Source: an uncultured Bdellovibrionales bacterium (lineage in GTDB: Bacteria > Patescibacteriota > Minisyncoccia > Moranbacterales > GWC2-37-73). Taken from it: a stretch of 64,000 nucleotides of DNA. The stretch spans positions 23,265 through 87,264 of the forward strand of contig CAZAFB010000004.1 in the NCBI GenBank assembly GCA_964484505.1. The letters are read 5' to 3'. The translations under genes were made by a program, and so were the position numbers. The notes under the pieces are model-generated. The model saw only the letters and a list, made by a program, of their open reading frames with translations, ran no database searches and was not told the DNA's origin. Positions 20,709 through 63,475 of this stretch are shown piece by piece (position 1 is the stretch's first letter; the number at the start of each line of letters is the position of its first letter).

Positions 20709-20788
20709 CGGAGTTTAAAAATAATTTTCAGTTGTGGATAAGTCCCAAAAATGGCTTAGGAAAAGGAGCTTGGCAGATATTTGACTTG

Positions 20789-20797
20789 TGGTATAAT
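20789..20797 (+). promoter_or_regulatory. extended -10 promoter (TGgTATAAT) upstream of nrdR
   Basis: TG-n-TATAAT. Confidence 0.5.
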
Positions 20798-20808
20798 GTA
20801 TCTAACGT

Positions 20809-20853
20809 ACACTATATCTTGTGGTTTTGATAATAAAACACAAAAATCGTGAG
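20809..20853 (+). promoter_or_regulatory. two candidate NrdR boxes
   Basis: ACACTATATCTTGTGG matches 13/16 of the ACACwAtATaTwGTGT consensus; second weaker box ACACAAAAATCGTGAG about 29 bp downstream. Confidence 0.45.
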
Positions 20854-20892: not shown

Positions 20893-20945
20893 ATAACGTT
20901 TATAACGTTCGTAACGTTATAACGTTAAAAACGTTTAAGCGTTAA
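20893..20945 (+). repeat. 9-bp tandem repeat (xTAACGTTx) x6 immediately upstream of nrdR
   Basis: AACGTT hexamers at 20895, 20904, 20913, 20921, 20930, and AGCGTT at 20938. Confidence 0.8.
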
Positions 20946-20959
20946 AACGAAAAAATACT

Positions 20960-21412
20960 ATGGTTTGTCCATTTTGCGGGCACGATGACACGAAAGTTGT
21001 CGACTCGCGTGATACGAATGACGGCCGGGCGATCCGGCGACGCAGAGAATGCGAACAATGCCAAGCACGTTTCTCAACGTACGAGGAGATGGAAATAATG
21101 AAGCTGACGGTGATTAAGCGCGACGGTTCCAAGCAGGAATATCGCAAAGAGAAAATAGAAAACGGTCTGCGTAAAGCTCTGGAAAAATGTCCAGTTAGTG
21201 AAGATAGAATCAGTAAAGCGCTCGGTGATATCGAATATGAAATCCAATCCAAGGATTCACCTGAAATCACCAGCAAGGAAATAGGTAAAATAGTTTTGGC
21301 GAAGCTGAAAGAATTGGACGACGTAGCGTATCTGCGATTTGCCAGCGTGTACAAGTCTTTCAAGAATGCCGAGAGTTTTGTGAAGGAGATGGAAAAGCTT
21401 GAATCATCGTGA
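20960..21412 (+). CDS. nrdR: transcriptional repressor NrdR
   Basis: N-terminal Zn ribbon (CPFCG...CEQC) plus ATP-cone. Confidence 0.9.
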   Translation: MVCPFCGHDDTKVVDSRDTNDGRAIRRRRECEQCQARFSTYEEMEIMKLTVIKRDGSKQEYRKEKIENGLRKALEKCPVSEDRISKALGDIEYEIQSKDSPEITSKEIGKIVLAKLKELDDVAYLRFASVYKSFKNAESFVKEMEKLESS

Positions 21413-21523
21413 TGGCGACTCGAATGATACGAATCTGCACTCGAATGACTCGAATGTCAAAGTAATCTATTCGCAAATGGGCATTTATTCGTAGGTTAGA
21501 ATTATATTATTTATTAAATACTT

Positions 21524-23806
21524 TTGGGGGAAAACGAGAGTATGAAAAAACAAAAAGGAAAATCAGCAAAGGCCGCAAAGAAGGTTGCAACCGTAACCAA
21601 GAAAACGGCAGTGAAGAAAGTAAATGTTATCAAGCAAGTTGTAAAGCGTAGTGGACGCACGGTGCCTTTTGATGCCAAAAAAATCACAGTTGCTGTTACC
21701 AAGGCATTGGCTTCTACGGGAGAAGGGACAAAAGCGGAAGCACAGAAAGTTACTGACAAGGTTGTTAAAATGCTCAACAAAAATCATGGCAAAGGATATG
21801 TGCCACAAATCGAGGAAATCCAAGACATGGTGGAGCGTGTGCTCATGGTGCTTGATTTCGAGGAAACTGCAAAAGCATATATTCTTTATCGTGAACAACA
21901 CCGAAAGATTCGTGAAACCGAAGAAGCATTGGATGAAGCAGTCTCTTTGGTTGATAAATATATCCAAGAGATTGATTGGAAAGTGAAGGAAAACGCAAAC
22001 ATGGCATATTCCTTGCAGGGACTCAACAATTACATTTCTTCGATCGTTAGCAGTAAATATTGGATGAATCGCGTGTATACCAAAGACATTCGCAGCGCAC
22101 ACGAAGAAGGTGATTTTCATATTCACGATTTGCAATTGGTGGCGGCGTATTGCTGCGGATGGGACTTGCAAGACCTACTTCGTCGCGGATTTACCGGTGT
22201 TCCAGGCAAAGTGGAATGCAAACCGGCTAAACATTTCGGCAGCGCTTTGGGTCAGATGGTGAATTTTATCTATACTCTGCAAGGTGAGGTTGCTGGTGCA
22301 CAAGCTTTCTCTAATTTCGATACGCTGCTTGCGCCGTTTGTCAGAAACGATAAACTTTCCTACGCACAAGTAAAGCAGGAGATCCAGTCTTTTGTGTTTA
22401 ACATGAACGTTTCCACGCGCGTGGGATTCCAGACGCCGTTTTCCAACATTACACTTGACATCGTTCCTCCTAAGACTTTAGCAAATGAGGCTGTGGTTAT
22501 CGGCGGTGTGCCCCAGAAAGAAACTTACGCGGAATTCCAAGATGAAATGAACATGATCAATCGTGCGTTTGCGGAAGTGATGAGTGAAGGAGATGCGAAT
22601 GGACGTATTTTTACCTTCCCGATCCCGACTTACAATATCGATAAAAATTTCAACTGGGAAGATGACCGCTTCGATGCAATTTGGGAAATGACCGCCAAAT
22701 ATGGCATTCCGTATTTTGCGAACTTTGTGAACTCCGATATGGATCCTGATGACGCACGTTCGATGTGTTGTCGCTTGCGTTTGGATAATCGCGAACTGCA
22801 TAAACGCGGCGGCGGTCTATTTGGAGCAAACCCGCTCACCGGTTCAATCGGCGTGGTAACGATCAATATGCCACGCGTGGGCTATTTGGCCAAAAACAAG
22901 AAAGATTTTTACAAACGCTTGAACGCACTGATGGATTTGGCGAAGCAAAGCTTGGAAACCAAACGCGAATTAGTGGAAGGGCTTACCGAAAAAGGACTTT
23001 ATCCATATACTAAATTCTATCTTGATTCGATCAAGGGGCGTCGCGGGCAATATTGGGCGAATCATTTTTCGACGATCGGTTTGGTGGGCATGAACGAAGC
23101 TTTGTTAAATCTGATTGGTAAAGATATTACGACCAAAGAAGGCCAGGAATTGGCTCAGGAAGTTTTGGAACATATGCGTGAATATATTACCAAATTCCAG
23201 GAGGAAACAGGTAATCTGTATAATCTCGAAGCGACACCTGCCGAAGGAACAGCCTATCGCCTGGCTCGCGCTGACCGCGAAAGATATCCGGATATTGTTT
23301 TTGCTAATAATGAAGCTGTTGTTAATGTTGGTGCGGAACCTTATTACACAAATTCCTCACAGCTCCCCGTGTCGTTTACGGAAGATATTTTCGAGGCCTT
23401 GGATTTGCAAGACGGTTTGCAGACTAAATATACCGGCGGTACGGTACTGCATGGATTTTTGGGAGAAAGACTTTGGGATATTGTCACGGTGAAGAATTTG
23501 GTGCGCCGCATTGCTGAAACCTATGAGTTGCCATATTTCACCCTAACTCCGACATTCTCGATTTGTCCGGTACATGGCTACATTGCCGGCGAACATCATC
23601 AATGTCCGAAATGTGTGATCGAGCAGCCAACGGAAGTATATTCTCGCGTGGTTGGCTACATCCGTCCTGTGCAGCAATGGAACAAAGGCAAGCGCACTGA
23701 ATTTGGCGACCGCAAGGAATTCGTAGTGGCAGGTGAAGTATGTGAACCTGTTAAGAAGGCTAAAGTTGCTAAGAAAAAAGCAAAGAAAAAGGCGAAGAAA
23801 AAGTAG
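21524..23806 (+). CDS. nrdD: anaerobic ribonucleoside-triphosphate reductase (class III)
   Basis: N-terminal ATP-cone, C-terminal Zn ribbon CPVHGY...CPKC, glycyl-radical motif SRVVGYIRP, Lys-rich tail. Confidence 0.85.
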   Translation: MGENESMKKQKGKSAKAAKKVATVTKKTAVKKVNVIKQVVKRSGRTVPFDAKKITVAVTKALASTGEGTKAEAQKVTDKVVKMLNKNHGKGYVPQIEEIQDMVERVLMVLDFEETAKAYILYREQHRKIRETEEALDEAVSLVDKYIQEIDWKVKENANMAYSLQGLNNYISSIVSSKYWMNRVYTKDIRSAHEEGDFHIHDLQLVAAYCCGWDLQDLLRRGFTGVPGKVECKPAKHFGSALGQMVNFIYTLQGEVAGAQAFSNFDTLLAPFVRNDKLSYAQVKQEIQSFVFNMNVSTRVGFQTPFSNITLDIVPPKTLANEAVVIGGVPQKETYAEFQDEMNMINRAFAEVMSEGDANGRIFTFPIPTYNIDKNFNWEDDRFDAIWEMTAKYGIPYFANFVNSDMDPDDARSMCCRLRLDNRELHKRGGGLFGANPLTGSIGVVTINMPRVGYLAKNKKDFYKRLNALMDLAKQSLETKRELVEGLTEKGLYPYTKFYLDSIKGRRGQYWANHFSTIGLVGMNEALLNLIGKDITTKEGQELAQEVLEHMREYITKFQEETGNLYNLEATPAEGTAYRLARADRERYPDIVFANNEAVVNVGAEPYYTNSSQLPVSFTEDIFEALDLQDGLQTKYTGGTVLHGFLGERLWDIVTVKNLVRRIAETYELPYFTLTPTFSICPVHGYIAGEHHQCPKCVIEQPTEVYSRVVGYIRPVQQWNKGKRTEFGDRKEFVVAGEVCEPVKKAKVAKKKAKKKAKKK

Positions 23807-24004
23807 CATTTGTCATGCTGAATTTATTTCAGCATCCCTAGGAGTACAGCGCAGATCCTGAAACAAGTTCAGGATGACAGCAATAAAACGTTTCTATCGA
23901 TAAGCTAGCGATCAATAGAAATAATTAGATATAAAATAAAAAGATAAATACAAAGGTTGCGAATTTTTTCGTACATTCGTAAAAATTCGTAATTCGTAGG
24001 GAAT

Positions 24005-24271
24005 ATGGAAAAATACATCTGCCATGATTGTGGCAAAACATTGGAAAACAATGAAGAATATATGCCCTATCAAGTAGGGGAAGAAATATATGTGAAATGT
24101 AAAGCATGTCACCAAGCCGATCCGGTGCTGCGCAATTTCCGCGCCACGGAAGTTTATTCTCGCGTGGTTGGCTATATCCGCCCGGTTAAACAATGGAACA
24201 AGGGAAAAAGGACTGAATTTGGAGATAGGAAAGAGTTTGTGGTTGAGAATGCTGGGTGTTGTGCAGCGTAG
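24005..24271 (+). CDS. free-standing NrdD C-terminal module: Zn ribbon plus glycyl-radical domain (GrcA-like spare part candidate)
   Basis: CHDCG...CKACH Zn ribbon, then EVYSRVVGYIRPVKQWNKGKRTEFGDRKEFVV, near-identical to the NrdD C-terminus at protein level but diverged at synonymous sites. Confidence 0.7.
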   Translation: MEKYICHDCGKTLENNEEYMPYQVGEEIYVKCKACHQADPVLRNFRATEVYSRVVGYIRPVKQWNKGKRTEFGDRKEFVVENAGCCAA

Positions 24272-24292
24272 ATTGGGTAGGAGACAGGAATT

Positions 24293-24320
24293 ATAGATTA
24301 TAGATTATAGATTATAGATT
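24293..24320 (+). repeat. 7-bp tandem repeat TATAGAT x4
   Basis: Direct reading of the sequence. Confidence 0.9.
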
Positions 24321-24493
24321 ATTGCGTGGTATTGGTAAAACCCAGCCTTCGCTCGCTTTGGGGCGAGCTACGGCGGGCGAGGAAAAAGATGGCGGGGCGA
24401 TATTTTCTCAGGGGAATATCGCCCTGTGTTTCCTTCGAGAGAAAATTGGGATTTGTTTAGAAATTAGATATTAGGAATTAGAAATTTACGCGT

Positions 24494-25195
24494 ATGCGTA
24501 TCGGTGGCTTCCAAAAACTCACATTGATAGATTACCCTGGCAAGATTGCGACGACGGTTTTTACGATTGGTTGCAGTTTTAAATGCCCGTTTTGTCATAA
24601 TCCGGAATTGGTTATCAAATCCGAGTTTTTGCCCTGGGAAGGCGTCGAAGAAGAATTTTTCCAGCATTTGGAAAAAAGAAAAGGGAAATTGGATGGCGTG
24701 TGTATTACTGGCGGCGAACCGACAATCCAGCCAGACATCATTGAATTTATCAAAAAGATAAAAGACATGGGTTATTTGGTGAAGCTTGATACGAATGGCA
24801 CGCAGCCGGATGTTTTGAAAAAGTTGTATGATTTGAAGCTTTTGGATTTTGTGGCGACGGACATCAAAAACGCGCCGGATAGATATGATGACACGGTCGG
24901 TCTCAAAGCAAACATAGAAAACGTGAAAAAAAGCGTGGCGATGATCATGAAAAGCGGCTTGCCCTATGAATTTCGCACCACCGTGGTTCCTGGTATCCAC
25001 ACGGAAAAAGATTTTGACGCGGTTGCTGACTGGATCGACGGTGCGGATGCCTATTATCTTCAAGAATATCGCAGCGGCAAAACGATTGATAAGAATATGG
25101 ACAAAATTACGAAAGGAAAAACAATCGATTTGGAAAAGATTGGCGAGAAAATCGGGAAGAGATTTAAAAAATTTGGGATAAGAAAAAATTTATAA
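24494..25195 (+). CDS. nrdG: anaerobic ribonucleotide reductase activating protein (radical SAM)
   Basis: CSFKCPFCHN cluster, GGEP. Confidence 0.85.
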   Translation: MRIGGFQKLTLIDYPGKIATTVFTIGCSFKCPFCHNPELVIKSEFLPWEGVEEEFFQHLEKRKGKLDGVCITGGEPTIQPDIIEFIKKIKDMGYLVKLDTNGTQPDVLKKLYDLKLLDFVATDIKNAPDRYDDTVGLKANIENVKKSVAMIMKSGLPYEFRTTVVPGIHTEKDFDAVADWIDGADAYYLQEYRSGKTIDKNMDKITKGKTIDLEKIGEKIGKRFKKFGIRKNL

Positions 25196-33751: not shown

Positions 33752-33865
33752 CCCTGAAGTAAATTTTTCGGGCTGTAGTATACCGGTAGTACGCGTCCAT
33801 GGGGTGGATGTAGACCGGGTTCAATTCCCGGCAGCCCGACAATTATCCGAAAAATTACTTCAGGG
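33752..33865 (+). repeat. 19/20-bp inverted repeat (CCCTGAAGTAAATTTTTCGG / CCGAAAAATTACTTCAGGG) bracketing tRNA-Pro
   Basis: Near-perfect reverse complements at 33752-33771 and 33847-33865. Confidence 0.85.
33769..33839 (+). tRNA. tRNA-Pro (anticodon GGG)
   Basis: Acceptor CGGGCTG/CAGCCCG (C1-G72 typical of bacterial tRNA-Pro, A73), D arm, anticodon stem CGTCC/GGATG, loop ATGGGGT (U33, G37), T arm CCGGG-TTCAATT-CCCGG; CCA not encoded. Confidence 0.8.
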
Positions 33866-34506: not shown

Positions 34507-34631
34507 TAGCCCAAAGTAATACGAATCTTGTACGAATATACAAATGACTTAAAACGTCTTTCGGTTAAGGTTATGATGCCCGTTTGGTTTAATGGTTAGG
34601 GTTACGGCTTAATGCCGAATTACGTAACCAC

Positions 34632-57309: not shown

Positions 57310-57370
57310 ATACCCTACGAATTACGAATCAGTTACGAATTTACAAATTACGAATAATTGAAATAAGACG

Positions 57371-63345: not shown

Positions 63346-63475
63346 GACGCGAATTTTTACGAATTAAGAACGAATTTGCACGAATGTGTAATAAATAGCA
63401 AGTGAATATTTTTTAAGGAAACAACTGAATACGGGTTCGTACATTCGTACCAATTCGTAATTCGTAGAGAAAGTC
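63346..63475 (+). repeat. variant intergenic repeat element (ACGAAT direct copies then ATTCGTA inverted copies)
   Basis: GACGCGAATTTTTACGAATTAAGAACGAATTTGCACGAAT ... GTTCGTACATTCGTACCAATTCGTAATTCGTAG. Confidence 0.75.

Follow-up and report, generated by a model that had tools for sequence, protein, structure and literature searches.

An 88-aa ORF is flanked by nrdD on its 5′ side and by nrdG on its 3′ side in the window, as we call the whole 64-kb stretch of DNA analysed here (Table 1). The NrdD encoded upstream runs from a Lys-rich N-terminus through an ATP-cone and the barrel to a zinc site and Gly loop of its own, and ends in a Lys-rich tail. It scores 1089.5 bits against NCBIfam PRK08270 (NF006126; cutoff 548), and the nearest solved structures are T. 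maritima NrdD (4COI/4U3E) and 8P23. The downstream gene reaches 208.6 bits against TIGR02495 NrdG2 (cutoff 131), and its product is presumed to activate both NrdD and the small protein, hereafter the module.

The promoter upstream of nrdR has 11 of 12 matches and is TG-extended. The NrdR-box-like palindrome that follows it, ACACTATATCTTGTGG at 20809-20824, is not a significant match by itself, with at least one match in 44 of 100 shuffles, and is plausible because it is sited upstream of nrdR. This region is the probable start of an nrdR-nrdD-module-nrdG transcription unit.

The spacer between nrdD and the module is only ~14-120 nt in relatives, compared to 198 nt here. It contains hairpins at 23816-23834, 23855-23875 and 23890-23922 and has a predicted RNA fold of -53.3 kcal/mol (z = -6.3). 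An inverted repeat (23957-23971 / 23978-23992) stands immediately 5′ of the module start codon, overlapped by three ATTCGTA heptamers (23975-23998). Between the module and nrdG are ~4.5 tandem copies of ATTATAG (24290-24322) and a G+C-rich 16-bp hairpin (24392-24427), terminator-like with a weak T run. An Rfam scan returned no match in the operon spacers, and its sole match in the window was a tRNA (33769-33839). No Fur, SOD or rubrerythrin gene was found in the 64-kb window.

The identical 88-aa protein has been recorded from 16 contigs (NCBI, JGI, ENA and Logan assemblies), so the module is not an assembly artefact. In public annotations, ORFs of this kind go under 'anaerobic ribonucleoside-triphosphate reductase' or 'hypothetical protein', names that treat them like fragments.

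Table 1. Features of the nrd locus, in window coordinates.
Feature	Position	Strand	Basis
Sigma-70-like promoter TTGGCA-16-TATAAT, then NrdR-box-like palindrome	20770..20824	+	
nrdR, 150 aa, NrdR zinc ribbon and ATP-cone	20960..21412	+	PF22811 1.1e-21, PF03477 1.3e-22
nrdD, full-length class III RNR, 760 aa	21524..23806	+	PF13597 5.3e-202, NF006126
Zinc site of NrdD itself	23564..23614	+	C681-x2-H684-x9-C694-x2-C697
NrdD Gly-loop segment T703-V735	23630..23728	+	alignment to module
nrdD-module spacer, 198 nt	23807..24004	+	hairpins and inverted repeat
Stand-alone NrdD glycyl-radical module, 88 aa	24005..24271	+	ORF recovered as originally predicted
Module-specific 4-Cys zinc ribbon	24020..24109	+	C6HDC9 … KC32KAC35
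Module Gly-loop segment T48-V80	24146..24244	+	alignment to NrdD T703-V735
C-terminal Cys pair C85-C86	24257..24262	+	CC, CxC or CxxC at extreme C-terminus in subfamily
Module-nrdG spacer features	24290..24427	+	tandem repeat and hairpin
nrdG, radical-SAM activase, 233 aa	24494..25195	+	TIGR02495 NrdG2 5.1e-62

Relation to the NrdD C-terminus

The homology expected between the module and the glycyl-radical C-terminus of NrdD is confirmed. BLASTP aligns the small ORF to NrdD with 33 of 40 identities (E = 9e-21), and Pfam NRDD (PF13597) matches it with E = 1.9e-12 and 47.1 bits (cutoff 26.2). Module residues 5-78 align to the last 53 of the 562 PF13597 positions (510-562) only. NCBIfam NrdD equivalogs give 28-37 bits where their cutoffs are 326-585, and no alignment was obtained to NrdD residues 1-680; the ten-stranded alpha/beta barrel, the finger-loop Cys and the nucleotide-binding site are absent from these 88 residues. 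By its sequence the module is a domain-level relative of NrdD and not an NrdD. Pfam and NCBIfam scans of the module at E <= 0.1 returned NrdD models only, with no match to PF01228 or GrcA.

The shared segment is also the sole long direct repeat of the region (23630-23727 vs 24146-24243; 98 nt, 80% identity). Residues T48-V80 of the module and T703-V735 of NrdD are identical at 32 of 33 positions, the single non-synonymous difference being K62/Q717; 15 of the 33 codons are identical and 17 differ synonymously. By the Nei-Gojobori method pS is 0.82 (saturated) and pN 0.039. The full-length NrdD retains its Gly motif, as originally predicted, in the form RVVG711Y, with the presumed radical glycine G711 at 23654-23656. 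The corresponding G56 of the module, at 24170-24172 within YSRVVGYIRP, is invariant. A profile search of PDB sequences aligns G56 with Gly621, the radical site of T. maritima NrdD (PMC4493059); this sole match is weak (E = 0.13) and serves only to place the glycine.

The original prediction described the module as a duplicate of the NrdD C-terminus. That description is apt for the Gly-loop half, which is a near copy, and fails for the zinc ribbon, which is of another type. Every full-length NrdD examined in this clade has a compact CxxH-x9/10-CxxC zinc site, and an equivalent Cys/His/Cys/Cys site is present in T. maritima NrdD (PMC4493059). The module ribbon is spaced C6xxC9-x22-C32xxC35, with C6, H7, D8, C9, K31, C32 and C35 invariant in the family, and its CHDCG…KCxxC pattern was not found in any full-length NrdD examined. 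Members encoded by viruses and members linked to PerR share this ribbon (hhalign E = 7e-41 and 1e-42 for the two subfamilies). A recent local duplication of the nrdD tail was considered and rejected, as the two ribbons are of different types and the modules of cells and viruses together form a monophyletic family.

Structure prediction adds a partial picture. In the AF2 model of a virus-type member, the glycine is at the tip of a beta-hairpin that follows a beta-rich zinc domain, and the model of the window protein is of moderate confidence (pLDDT 66.6). Neither matched the NrdD fold significantly, and a Foldseek search of the window model against the PDB returned only generic ribosomal-protein zinc ribbons (E ~0.4-1). 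The case rests on sequence because fold comparison cannot pick out the C-terminal domain of NrdD from a protein as small and extended as the module.

An old family under purifying selection

We identified 669 homologues of the module, of ~86-88 aa (E <= 1e-3), and the best 150 representatives at 50% identity are all proteins of 42-159 aa. Three subfamilies show no variation at G56 or at the residues that flank it. The gene order nrdR-nrdD-module-nrdG recurs at 29 genome loci and at further metagenome loci, so that the nrdD-small ORF-nrdG synteny proposed for survey proves to be conserved in many genomes. As judged from these sequences, the module family is old, large and unnamed, stand-alone, and possessed of its own ribbon type.

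Divergence from the NrdD tail had been read as mainly synonymous and as a sign of purifying selection on the protein. Both points are borne out by the 17 synonymous codons and low pN of the loop and by an orthologue dN/dS of 0.03-0.11 for the module, which also rules out a pseudogene. The manner in which public annotations treat these ORFs would suit a decaying nrdD fragment or a gene-calling artefact. That reading is so improbable that it can be set aside: the conservation data already refute decay, with pN far below pS, hundreds of full-length orthologues whose Cys and Gly positions are invariant, a distinct ribbon that did not come from the neighbouring gene, and the same protein on 16 independent contigs.

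Gene conversion was detected in L005, L006 and L011, where 88-93 of 99 nt are identical between the module and cis loops. Similarity of the loops within a genome is thus partly a product of gene conversion and not of co-adaptation alone. For the window pair, 15 of the 32 codons that specify the same residue match exactly, a share equal to the background of 0.46 between genomes, with no sign of recent conversion.

Complementary loss of the NrdD Gly loop

In Moranbacteria-like genomes, three states are seen: NrdD with its own Gly loop, NrdD with its own loop together with the module (14 loci plus the window), and truncated NrdD with the module (15 loci, for example L007, LBXA01000011, of Moranbacteria GW2011_GWA2_39_41). 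On the NrdD tree these states are interspersed with one another, and each of 56 loci has at least one of the two Gly loops. The truncated NrdDs end 6-29 residues (median ~14) past the last zinc Cys, and the radical Gly of intact NrdD is 14 residues past that Cys. Some retain decayed vestiges, such as '…STVYLKVVMAD*'. The truncated cores are themselves under strong purifying selection (dN/dS 0.03-0.04), and in at least 15 genomes of this kind no Gly loop other than that of the module occurs near nrdD. A frameshift or assembly split behind the truncations was rejected, because the truncated state recurs in 15 or more independent assemblies, the spacers measure 30-100 nt and they conceal no Gly motif.

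Where NrdD stops close to the Gly position and the sole Gly loop nearby is that of the module, the module must, on this sequence evidence, supply the radical loop in trans to truncated NrdD. The same loci bear on the idea of a regulatory or decoy role, in which the module would compete for NrdG or fill the barrel, and so throttle or buffer radical formation, or would store a radical equivalent. The elements for NrdG recognition, zinc ribbon and Gly loop, are present, nrdG is co-located, and viruses could manipulate host dNTP supply in this way. However, genomes whose NrdD has no Gly loop retain a selected NrdD core and nrdG, which makes the module a productive partner there, and a decoy has no need of the near-perfect match at the barrel-contacting residues after the Gly. 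We regard the decoy idea as improbable.

PerR-linked and viral copies

In other Patescibacteria, the module is found in oxidative-stress neighbourhoods. At 17 loci a Fur-family regulator, with best matches to PerR models, is directly upstream of the module, and in many of these an Fe/Mn SOD, rubrerythrin, desulfoferrodoxin or hemerythrin gene is directly downstream. There is no nrdD within 4-6 kb of the PerR-linked modules (loci such as OZ246412.1 and JBAZUH010000001.1). The same subfamily also occurs beside nrdD-nrdG (L028, L177, L189-L194). The module of relatives of the window genome, usually 14-120 nt behind nrdD, looks constitutively co-expressed and not stress-induced.

Many viral contigs, IMG/VR contigs among them, encode a module subfamily of 110-135 aa, and ANMV-1 likewise encodes a stand-alone module. 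Neither the viral contigs nor ANMV-1 have nrdD or nrdG within 6 kb of it. The module is almost missing from cultured or deposited phage genomes, where only ANMV-1 and one uncultured phage have it, and PHROGs has no dedicated family, giving weak matches to the C-terminal end of phrog_487 (NrdD large subunit). The viral modules parallel Y06I of phage T4, a spare part for pyruvate formate-lyase (PFL).

These settings bear on an alternative account, by which the module is an ordinary radical subunit that acts in trans and has no particular tie to oxygen. Once it had been acquired, cis and trans loops would have become redundant, lineages would drift by neutral loss between one-piece and two-piece NrdD, and the window would be an intermediate. 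Interleaving of the three states on the NrdD tree, with either loop losable, fits it well, as do the short spacers of most relatives, which point to co-transcription, and a window without stress genes. Yet strong purifying selection, not expected of purely redundant copies, acts on both in at least 15 genomes, and neither the PerR-like, SOD and rubrerythrin neighbourhoods nor the viruses that carry only the module are explained by neutral redundancy, which we consider unlikely.

Proposed role of the module

Oxygen destroys glycyl radical enzymes by chain cleavage at the radical glycine. The one known repair device is GrcA/YfiD of E. coli (IPR011140), a spare part for PFL. Once the cognate activase has acted on it, GrcA takes the place of a radical domain cut by oxygen (PMC8683613, PMC12338860). 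The reading we favor, and think probably correct, is that the module is a GrcA/YfiD-like autonomous glycyl-radical cofactor of class III RNR, activated by NrdG and restoring oxygen-cut NrdD. The analogy, drawn at first from this one locus, is supported and strengthened at the sequence level by the truncated-NrdD loci, the PerR/SOD neighbourhoods and the viral copies. For this genome, the oxygen-rescue role is one we infer by analogy.

We propose a model where NrdG binds this zinc-ribbon protein, probably recognizing the ribbon by analogy with the cis domain, and abstracts a hydrogen from Gly56, the radical glycine on the C-terminal hairpin, by radical-SAM chemistry. A contact between the zinc domain of NrdD and NrdG has been conjectured previously (PMC4493059). 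The activated module would dock on an NrdD that lacks a loop of its own or has one that is cleaved or unactivated, its Gly hairpin would enter the barrel beside the finger-loop cysteine, and its radical would then power nucleotide reduction. We infer both activation by NrdG and docking in trans. In the window genome, the module may be a co-expressed replacement domain that restores NrdD after an oxygen cut at G711, a reading we adopt because NrdD there retains its own loop. In sister lineages the cis loop has been lost, and the module may now be an obligatory radical subunit. A cleaved NrdD would keep its own zinc ribbon alongside that of the module, and the need to accommodate two ribbons weighs against the model.

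In a broader context, the module may represent a widespread, unrecognised class of autonomous cofactor for class III RNR with three uses: a spare part for oxygen-cleaved NrdD, co-expressed or PerR-controlled; an obligatory radical-carrying subunit of a naturally two-piece NrdD in many Patescibacteria; and a minimal auxiliary gene of viruses. We put the chances of this wider scheme as even. In it, bacterial and archaeal viruses would bring ~115 residues with which to re-arm host NrdD via host NrdG.

Like GrcA/YfiD and T4 Y06I, the module is a small free-standing protein whose C-terminal half is the glycyl-radical loop of its cognate enzyme, and cellular and virus-encoded versions both exist. 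Unlike GrcA/YfiD, it derives from NrdD (PF13597) and not from PFL, its gene sits between those for the enzyme and the activase, and a structured 4-Cys zinc ribbon takes the place of the disordered N-terminal half of YfiD. In many genomes, again unlike GrcA/YfiD, it is the only Gly loop beside nrdD, as in an obligatory two-piece enzyme; we know of no such case for PFL. The order of a zinc ribbon followed by a radical-Gly hairpin is that of the NrdD C-terminal domain (T. maritima 4COI/4U3E; T4 1H7A), from which the module differs in being free-standing and in its CxxC-x22-CxxC ribbon with CHDCG and KCxxC motifs. Other small proteins, often Cys-rich, are encoded adjacent to glycyl radical enzymes and needed for activity, namely HpdC of 4-hydroxyphenylacetate decarboxylase and BssB/BssC of benzylsuccinate synthase (PMC13450708). 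In those systems the radical glycine stays on the large subunit, whereas the module carries it itself.

The literature leaves room for such a protein. Validation extends to just two spare parts, both for PFL, and the question whether other glycyl radical enzymes have them too has been raised explicitly (PMC8683613); the formate lyases are given as the sole class with identified spare-part proteins (PMC13450708, June 2026). These accounts agree with the original prediction, in which no such module was known to have been described for class III RNR, and our full-text search of the literature turned up no report of spare parts for NrdD, of NrdD in split form or of an NrdD Gly module in viruses. 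Strict anaerobes depend on class III RNR for DNA precursors, and the module is a concrete spare-part candidate for it. The truncated-NrdD genomes are a natural control, as the NrdD they encode already stops near the cleavage site and relies on the module. If the model holds, this would be the first glycyl radical enzyme with the radical on a separate polypeptide as its normal state. It is tempting to speculate that the module indicates how oxygen-sensitive, genome-reduced Patescibacteria withstand oxygen pulses, and among viruses it hints at an auxiliary gene of very small size that targets host nucleotide supply. Hundreds to thousands of database entries with fragment-like or hypothetical names would gain a proper name, and a truncated nrdD beside a module would be inappropriately labeled a pseudogene.

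The C-terminal Cys pair

A further difference from GrcA/YfiD is the terminal Cys pair of the Moranbacteria-type subfamily. At least two Cys occur in the last eight residues of 107 of 120 Moranbacteria-type members, as CC, CxC or CxxC endings, and of 0 of 106 virus-type members. In class I and II RNR, C-terminal Cys pairs of the large subunits re-reduce the active site; for class III we are not aware of any thiol shuttle at the C-terminus. The pair could be the module's main contribution, acting as a mobile thiol tail to re-reduce the active site of NrdD while the Gly loop serves mainly in docking. Window NrdD belongs to the T. maritima-like clade, with an SMCCR motif, in which a protein reductant and not formate has been reported (PMC4493059). 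Despite this context, we judge such a primary role highly improbable, since the pair is missing from virus-type members and from many PerR-linked ones and the Gly is invariant throughout. The shuttle could instead be an added function, and the Cys pair of Moranbacteria-type members may also re-reduce the active site in a module that acts as a radical cofactor. Similar Cys motifs end some NrdDs, both truncated (L015, '…SCCK'; L026, '…KVCC') and intact (L006, '…ACESC').

Relation of the module to the NrdD tail

The 88-codon ORF exists in the nrdD-nrdG interval as originally predicted, and its protein (the module, a zinc ribbon followed by a Gly loop) matches the window NrdD with 33/40 identities (E = 9e-21) and Pfam NRDD with E = 1.9e-12, the latter match being confined to the final 53 positions of a 562-position profile. 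The region's DNA contains a single long direct repeat, which pairs 23630-23727 with 24146-24243 over 98 nt with 80% identity. Residues T48-V80 of the module and T703-V735 of NrdD are identical at 32 of 33 positions, with 17 codons synonymously different. Across the 33 Gly-loop codons pS is 0.82, which is saturated, and pN is 0.039, in agreement with the claim that divergence is mainly synonymous and reflects purifying selection. In an alignment, the counterpart of module residue G56 in T. maritima NrdD is Gly621, which sits at the C-terminal loop's tip and is the site of the glycyl radical (PMC4493059). The window NrdD also retains its own motif, RVVG711Y, as had been noted.

The original prediction took the entire module for a copy of the NrdD C-terminus. 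This stands for the Gly-loop half, a near copy, and fails for the zinc ribbon, which is of another type (C6xxC9-x22-C32xxC35 in the module versus C681xxH684-x9-C694xxC697 in NrdD).

An old family with its own zinc ribbon

Conservation in other genomes was borne out. A search of 5.8 billion proteins found 669 module homologues at E <= 1e-3, nearly all of 85-90 aa. Their annotation reads "anaerobic ribonucleoside-triphosphate reductase" or hypothetical, and the taxon, where one is named, is Moranbacteria, Parcubacteria or Patescibacteria. The window sequence is found unchanged on 16 contigs, from four sources. When 1.84 billion representatives (50% identity) were searched exhaustively with a profile, there were 3826 matches at E <= 1e-3 (420 at <= 1e-10), the best 150 being all small proteins of 42-159 aa. 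A 28-member alignment shows no variation at the four Cys, at H7-D8 and K31, throughout the YSRVVGYIRP block (G56 included) or at QWN, and orthologue dN/dS is 0.03-0.11 over the full ORF, the zinc-ribbon half too.

The ribbon motif CHDCG…KCxxC…DPxLxNF is common to three stand-alone subfamilies; hhalign aligns the Moranbacteria type with the virus type (E = 7e-41) and with the PerR-linked type (E = 1e-42), in both cases across the ribbon. The CHDCG…KCxxC motif was found in none of the full-length NrdDs inspected, cellular or viral, all of which have a compact C[PS]xHGY…CPxC site. Since the ribbon is shared by the three subfamilies and absent from these NrdDs, the module family is monophyletic and old. 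An origin of the module as a copy of the adjacent nrdD tail is ruled out by this distinct, family-wide ribbon.

A terminal Cys pair (CC, CxC or CxxC; 24257-24262 in the window) is present in 107/120 Moranbacteria-type modules versus 0/106 virus-type ones; it may serve as a thiol shuttle or bind metal. Similar terminal motifs occur in some truncated NrdDs (L015 '…SCCK', L026 '…KVCC') and some intact NrdD tails (L006 '…ACESC').

Complementary loss of the NrdD Gly loop

A genome scan restricted to one genome per species yielded 80 loci, which were annotated by phmmer with the window proteins as queries. The module lies directly 3' of nrdD in 29 of them, with nrdG next almost always and nrdR ahead. 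These loci fall into two states. In state A (14 loci, and the window), a full-length NrdD with its own Gly loop, the cis loop, accompanies the module. In state B (15 loci: L002, 4, 7, 8, 12, 14, 15, 16, 18, 19, 20, 23, 24, 26, 33), NrdD ends 6-29 residues (median ~14) past its final zinc Cys; the distance from that Cys to the radical Gly of an intact NrdD is 14 residues. Decayed vestiges of the loop are seen in some state-B tails (for example "…CPKCKAEQSSTVYLKVVMAD*" in L007, "…TEVFLKVGEEEL…" in L019, "…SEGKYLKVKK…" in L002), and by sequence state-B NrdDs look like an NrdD that oxygen has cut at the glycine. Their cores (~700 residues) are under strong purifying selection, with dN/dS of 0.027 and 0.037 in two pairs. 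Only 30-100 nt separate them from the module, so no Gly loop is hidden there.

In a neighbour-joining tree of NrdD cores, cis only, cis plus module and module without cis are all interleaved; for example, state-B L008 nests with L009 and L013 (state A), beside L046 (cis only). Both Gly loops are missing in none of the 56 loci with a complete NrdD; L056 was scored as lacking the Gly by regular expression, yet has an NrdD tail match by phmmer. The simplest reading of these sequence patterns is that the module gives NrdD its radical loop in trans, interchangeably with the cis loop.

The module loop is closer to the NrdD loop of its own genome than to those of other genomes, with mean identities of 79.4 versus 67.3 of 99 nt and 28.7 versus 24.9 of 33 residues; among identical residues, identical codons are used at 0.65 versus 0.46. 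In L005, L006 and L011, NrdD tail and module loop are identical at 88-93 of 99 nt within the genome, a sign that nrdD and the module gene have recently undergone gene conversion. The window loops have an identical-codon fraction of 15/32, equal to the between-genome background, and the highest protein identity of all genomes compared (32/33), so that either selection has kept the match, or there was an old conversion and selection has acted since. Presumably both loops are constrained to fit one barrel and one NrdG.

A second, independent type of two-piece NrdD was observed in L075 (3743-5782 + 5929-6108), L079 (3864-5915 + 5971-6108), L061 and L072. The large ORF stops past the zinc site ('…CPKCDAEIGY…') and a separate ORF of 46-66 aa, with its own start codon, carries the Gly loop only, without a ribbon. 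Its occurrence in two related MAGs (Falkowbacteria, Buchananbacteria) makes sequencing error unlikely. Full-length NrdDs of 1020-2034 aa, cellular and viral, have large core insertions, probably inteins or other inserts (L045, L126, L134, L139, L160, L192, L229, L233, L243).

Oxidative-stress neighbourhoods

A module variant of 92-103 aa occurs at ten genome loci (L027, 29, 30, 32, 34-39) in Staskawiczbacteria, Paceibacterota and "Saccharibacteria"-labelled MAGs; neither nrdD nor nrdG lies within 6 kb of it. A Fur-family gene lies directly 5', often overlapping, and Fe/Mn superoxide dismutase, rubrerythrin, desulfoferrodoxin or hemerythrin follows 3' on the same strand. In NCBIfam the Fur homologues score highest against PerR models, with 90 bits (under the curated cutoff), and we call them PerR-like only. 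In L029, class I nrdA/nrdB lie on the opposite strand, 2-5 kb 5'.

An independent scan of metagenome contigs found such clusters again (within L166-L186), showing that they recur in Patescibacteria. It gave Fur-module-SOD (L166, 167, 168, 172, 175) and Fur-module arrangements (L171, 174, 178, 179, 180, 181), with rubrerythrin at L178, 184 and 186 and desulfoferrodoxin at L178. Members of the PerR-linked subfamily also lie between nrdD and nrdG (L028, L177, L189, 190, 192, 194), which ties the two contexts together. No stress genes were found in the 64-kb window. The PerR-like/stress-gene clusters are the main evidence for a putative link of the module to oxygen damage, and not to enzyme architecture alone.

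Viral copies

The virus-type subfamily (110-135 aa; 2391 members at E <= 1e-5, of which nearly all lack a name) has an N-terminal helix, a longer ribbon with ISGGAxY and the same Gly loop. On three contigs the module sits amid runs of tiny ORFs, with primase/helicase, SNF2 helicase, HU, endolysin, DNA methylase, ThyX and HNH as neighbours. An IMG/VR scan returned 80 loci, ~60 with a stand-alone module (43-156 aa) and neither an NrdD core nor NrdG within 6 kb, and ~14 with an ordinary full-length viral NrdD. Stand-alone viral modules from IMG/VR and metagenome contigs are L081-L124 and L163; among them, the deposited archaeal virus ANMV-1 (KP703175.1, 25525-25959, L085) encodes a copy of 144 aa under the annotation "anaerobic ribonucleoside triphosphate reductase". 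By analogy with Y06I, which is GrcA's viral counterpart in T4 (PMC8683613), the virus-type module looks like a minimal viral auxiliary gene.

Proposed role

We propose a model where NrdG activates G56, the zinc ribbon of the module probably being the handle for the activase; the cis zinc domain of NrdD has been conjectured to contact NrdG (PMC4493059). The module would dock on an NrdD without a usable loop and then supply the finger-loop cysteine with the radical. Its role in the window genome would be that of a co-encoded stand-in for a cis loop that oxygen has cleaved at G711, and in state-B genomes that of a constitutive radical subunit. The sequence comparisons establish homology, selection, synteny, complementary loss, stress contexts and viral copies; activation, docking and rescue are inferred. 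Weak points are that the window has no stress genes, that the module appears co-transcribed with nrdD in most relatives, and that a cleaved NrdD would keep its resident ribbon.

AF2 models the window module with moderate confidence as a beta-rich zinc ribbon (pLDDT ~77) and with less confidence in its C-terminal half (56-67), as expected if the loop orders only on docking. In a virus-type member (pLDDT 75.7) the Gly is at a beta-hairpin tip (strands 81-84 and 87-90), and a helix comes next. Fold searches with the AF2 models were uninformative.

In its proposed role the module would work like GrcA/YfiD, but it is not of that family, PF01228 and GrcA matches being absent; it is NrdD-derived, carries a zinc ribbon and, judged from gene content, appears obligatory in many genomes. 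YfiD and Y06I are the only validated spare parts, others for further glycyl radical enzymes being possible (PMC8683613). Full-text literature searches turned up no account of such a module for NrdD, of NrdD in split form or of viral versions.

The window locus

The array runs nrdR, nrdD, module ORF, nrdG, and on sequence the three flanking genes are securely identified, NrdD scoring 1089 bits against NCBIfam PRK08270 (cutoff 548).

Features of the nrdR-nrdD-module-nrdG locus and heptamer sites
Feature	Position	Strand	Remarks
Sigma-70-like promoter	20770-20797		ahead of nrdR
NrdR-box-like palindrome	20809-20824		ahead of nrdR
nrdR	20960-21412		zinc ribbon + ATP-cone
nrdD	21524-23806		ATP-cone + PF13597 across whole length
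Module ORF	24005-24271	+	88 codons, between nrdD and nrdG
Strong hairpin	24392-24427		3' of module
nrdG	24494-25195		passes TIGR02495
ATTCGTA/TACGAAT sites	23975-23998, 57316-57355, 63443-63466, 34520-34537, 21428-21434, 21487-21493

The module spacers (198 and 222 nt) are unusually long here compared with 14-120 nt in relatives. The nrdD-module spacer (23807-24004) folds into four hairpins at -53.3 kcal/mol (z = -6.3 versus shuffled controls), has no Rfam match, and ends 3' in an inverted repeat overlapping ATTCGTA heptamers. The ATTCGTA/TACGAAT heptamer occurs 24 times in the window versus 8.1 expected (0/100 shuffles reach 24), is enriched in intergenic spacers window-wide in tandem clusters, one directly 5' of the module, and may be a genome-wide intergenic signal of the source organism. 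Other repeats are ~6 AACGTT-containing 9-mers 5' of nrdR (20893-20950), ACTCGAATG/ATACGAAT 5' of nrdD (21413-21455) and ~4.5 copies of ATTATAG 3' of the module (24290-24322).

Both termini of the window NrdD are extended by Lys-rich stretches, N-terminal MKKQKGKSAKAAKK… (21524-21640) and C-terminal …KKAKVAKKKAKKKAKKK (23752-23803). In L015, L016 and L019, among several truncated-NrdD genomes, a similar Cys-Pro-Lys-rich tail is on the small ORF instead; the tail thus goes with the Gly domain wherever it is encoded. For TPA MAG records with typical Moranbacteria-like nrdR-nrdD-module-nrdG loci (L001-L003, L011, L014, L018 and others), the title 'uncultured Bdellovibrionales bacterium' looks unreliable.
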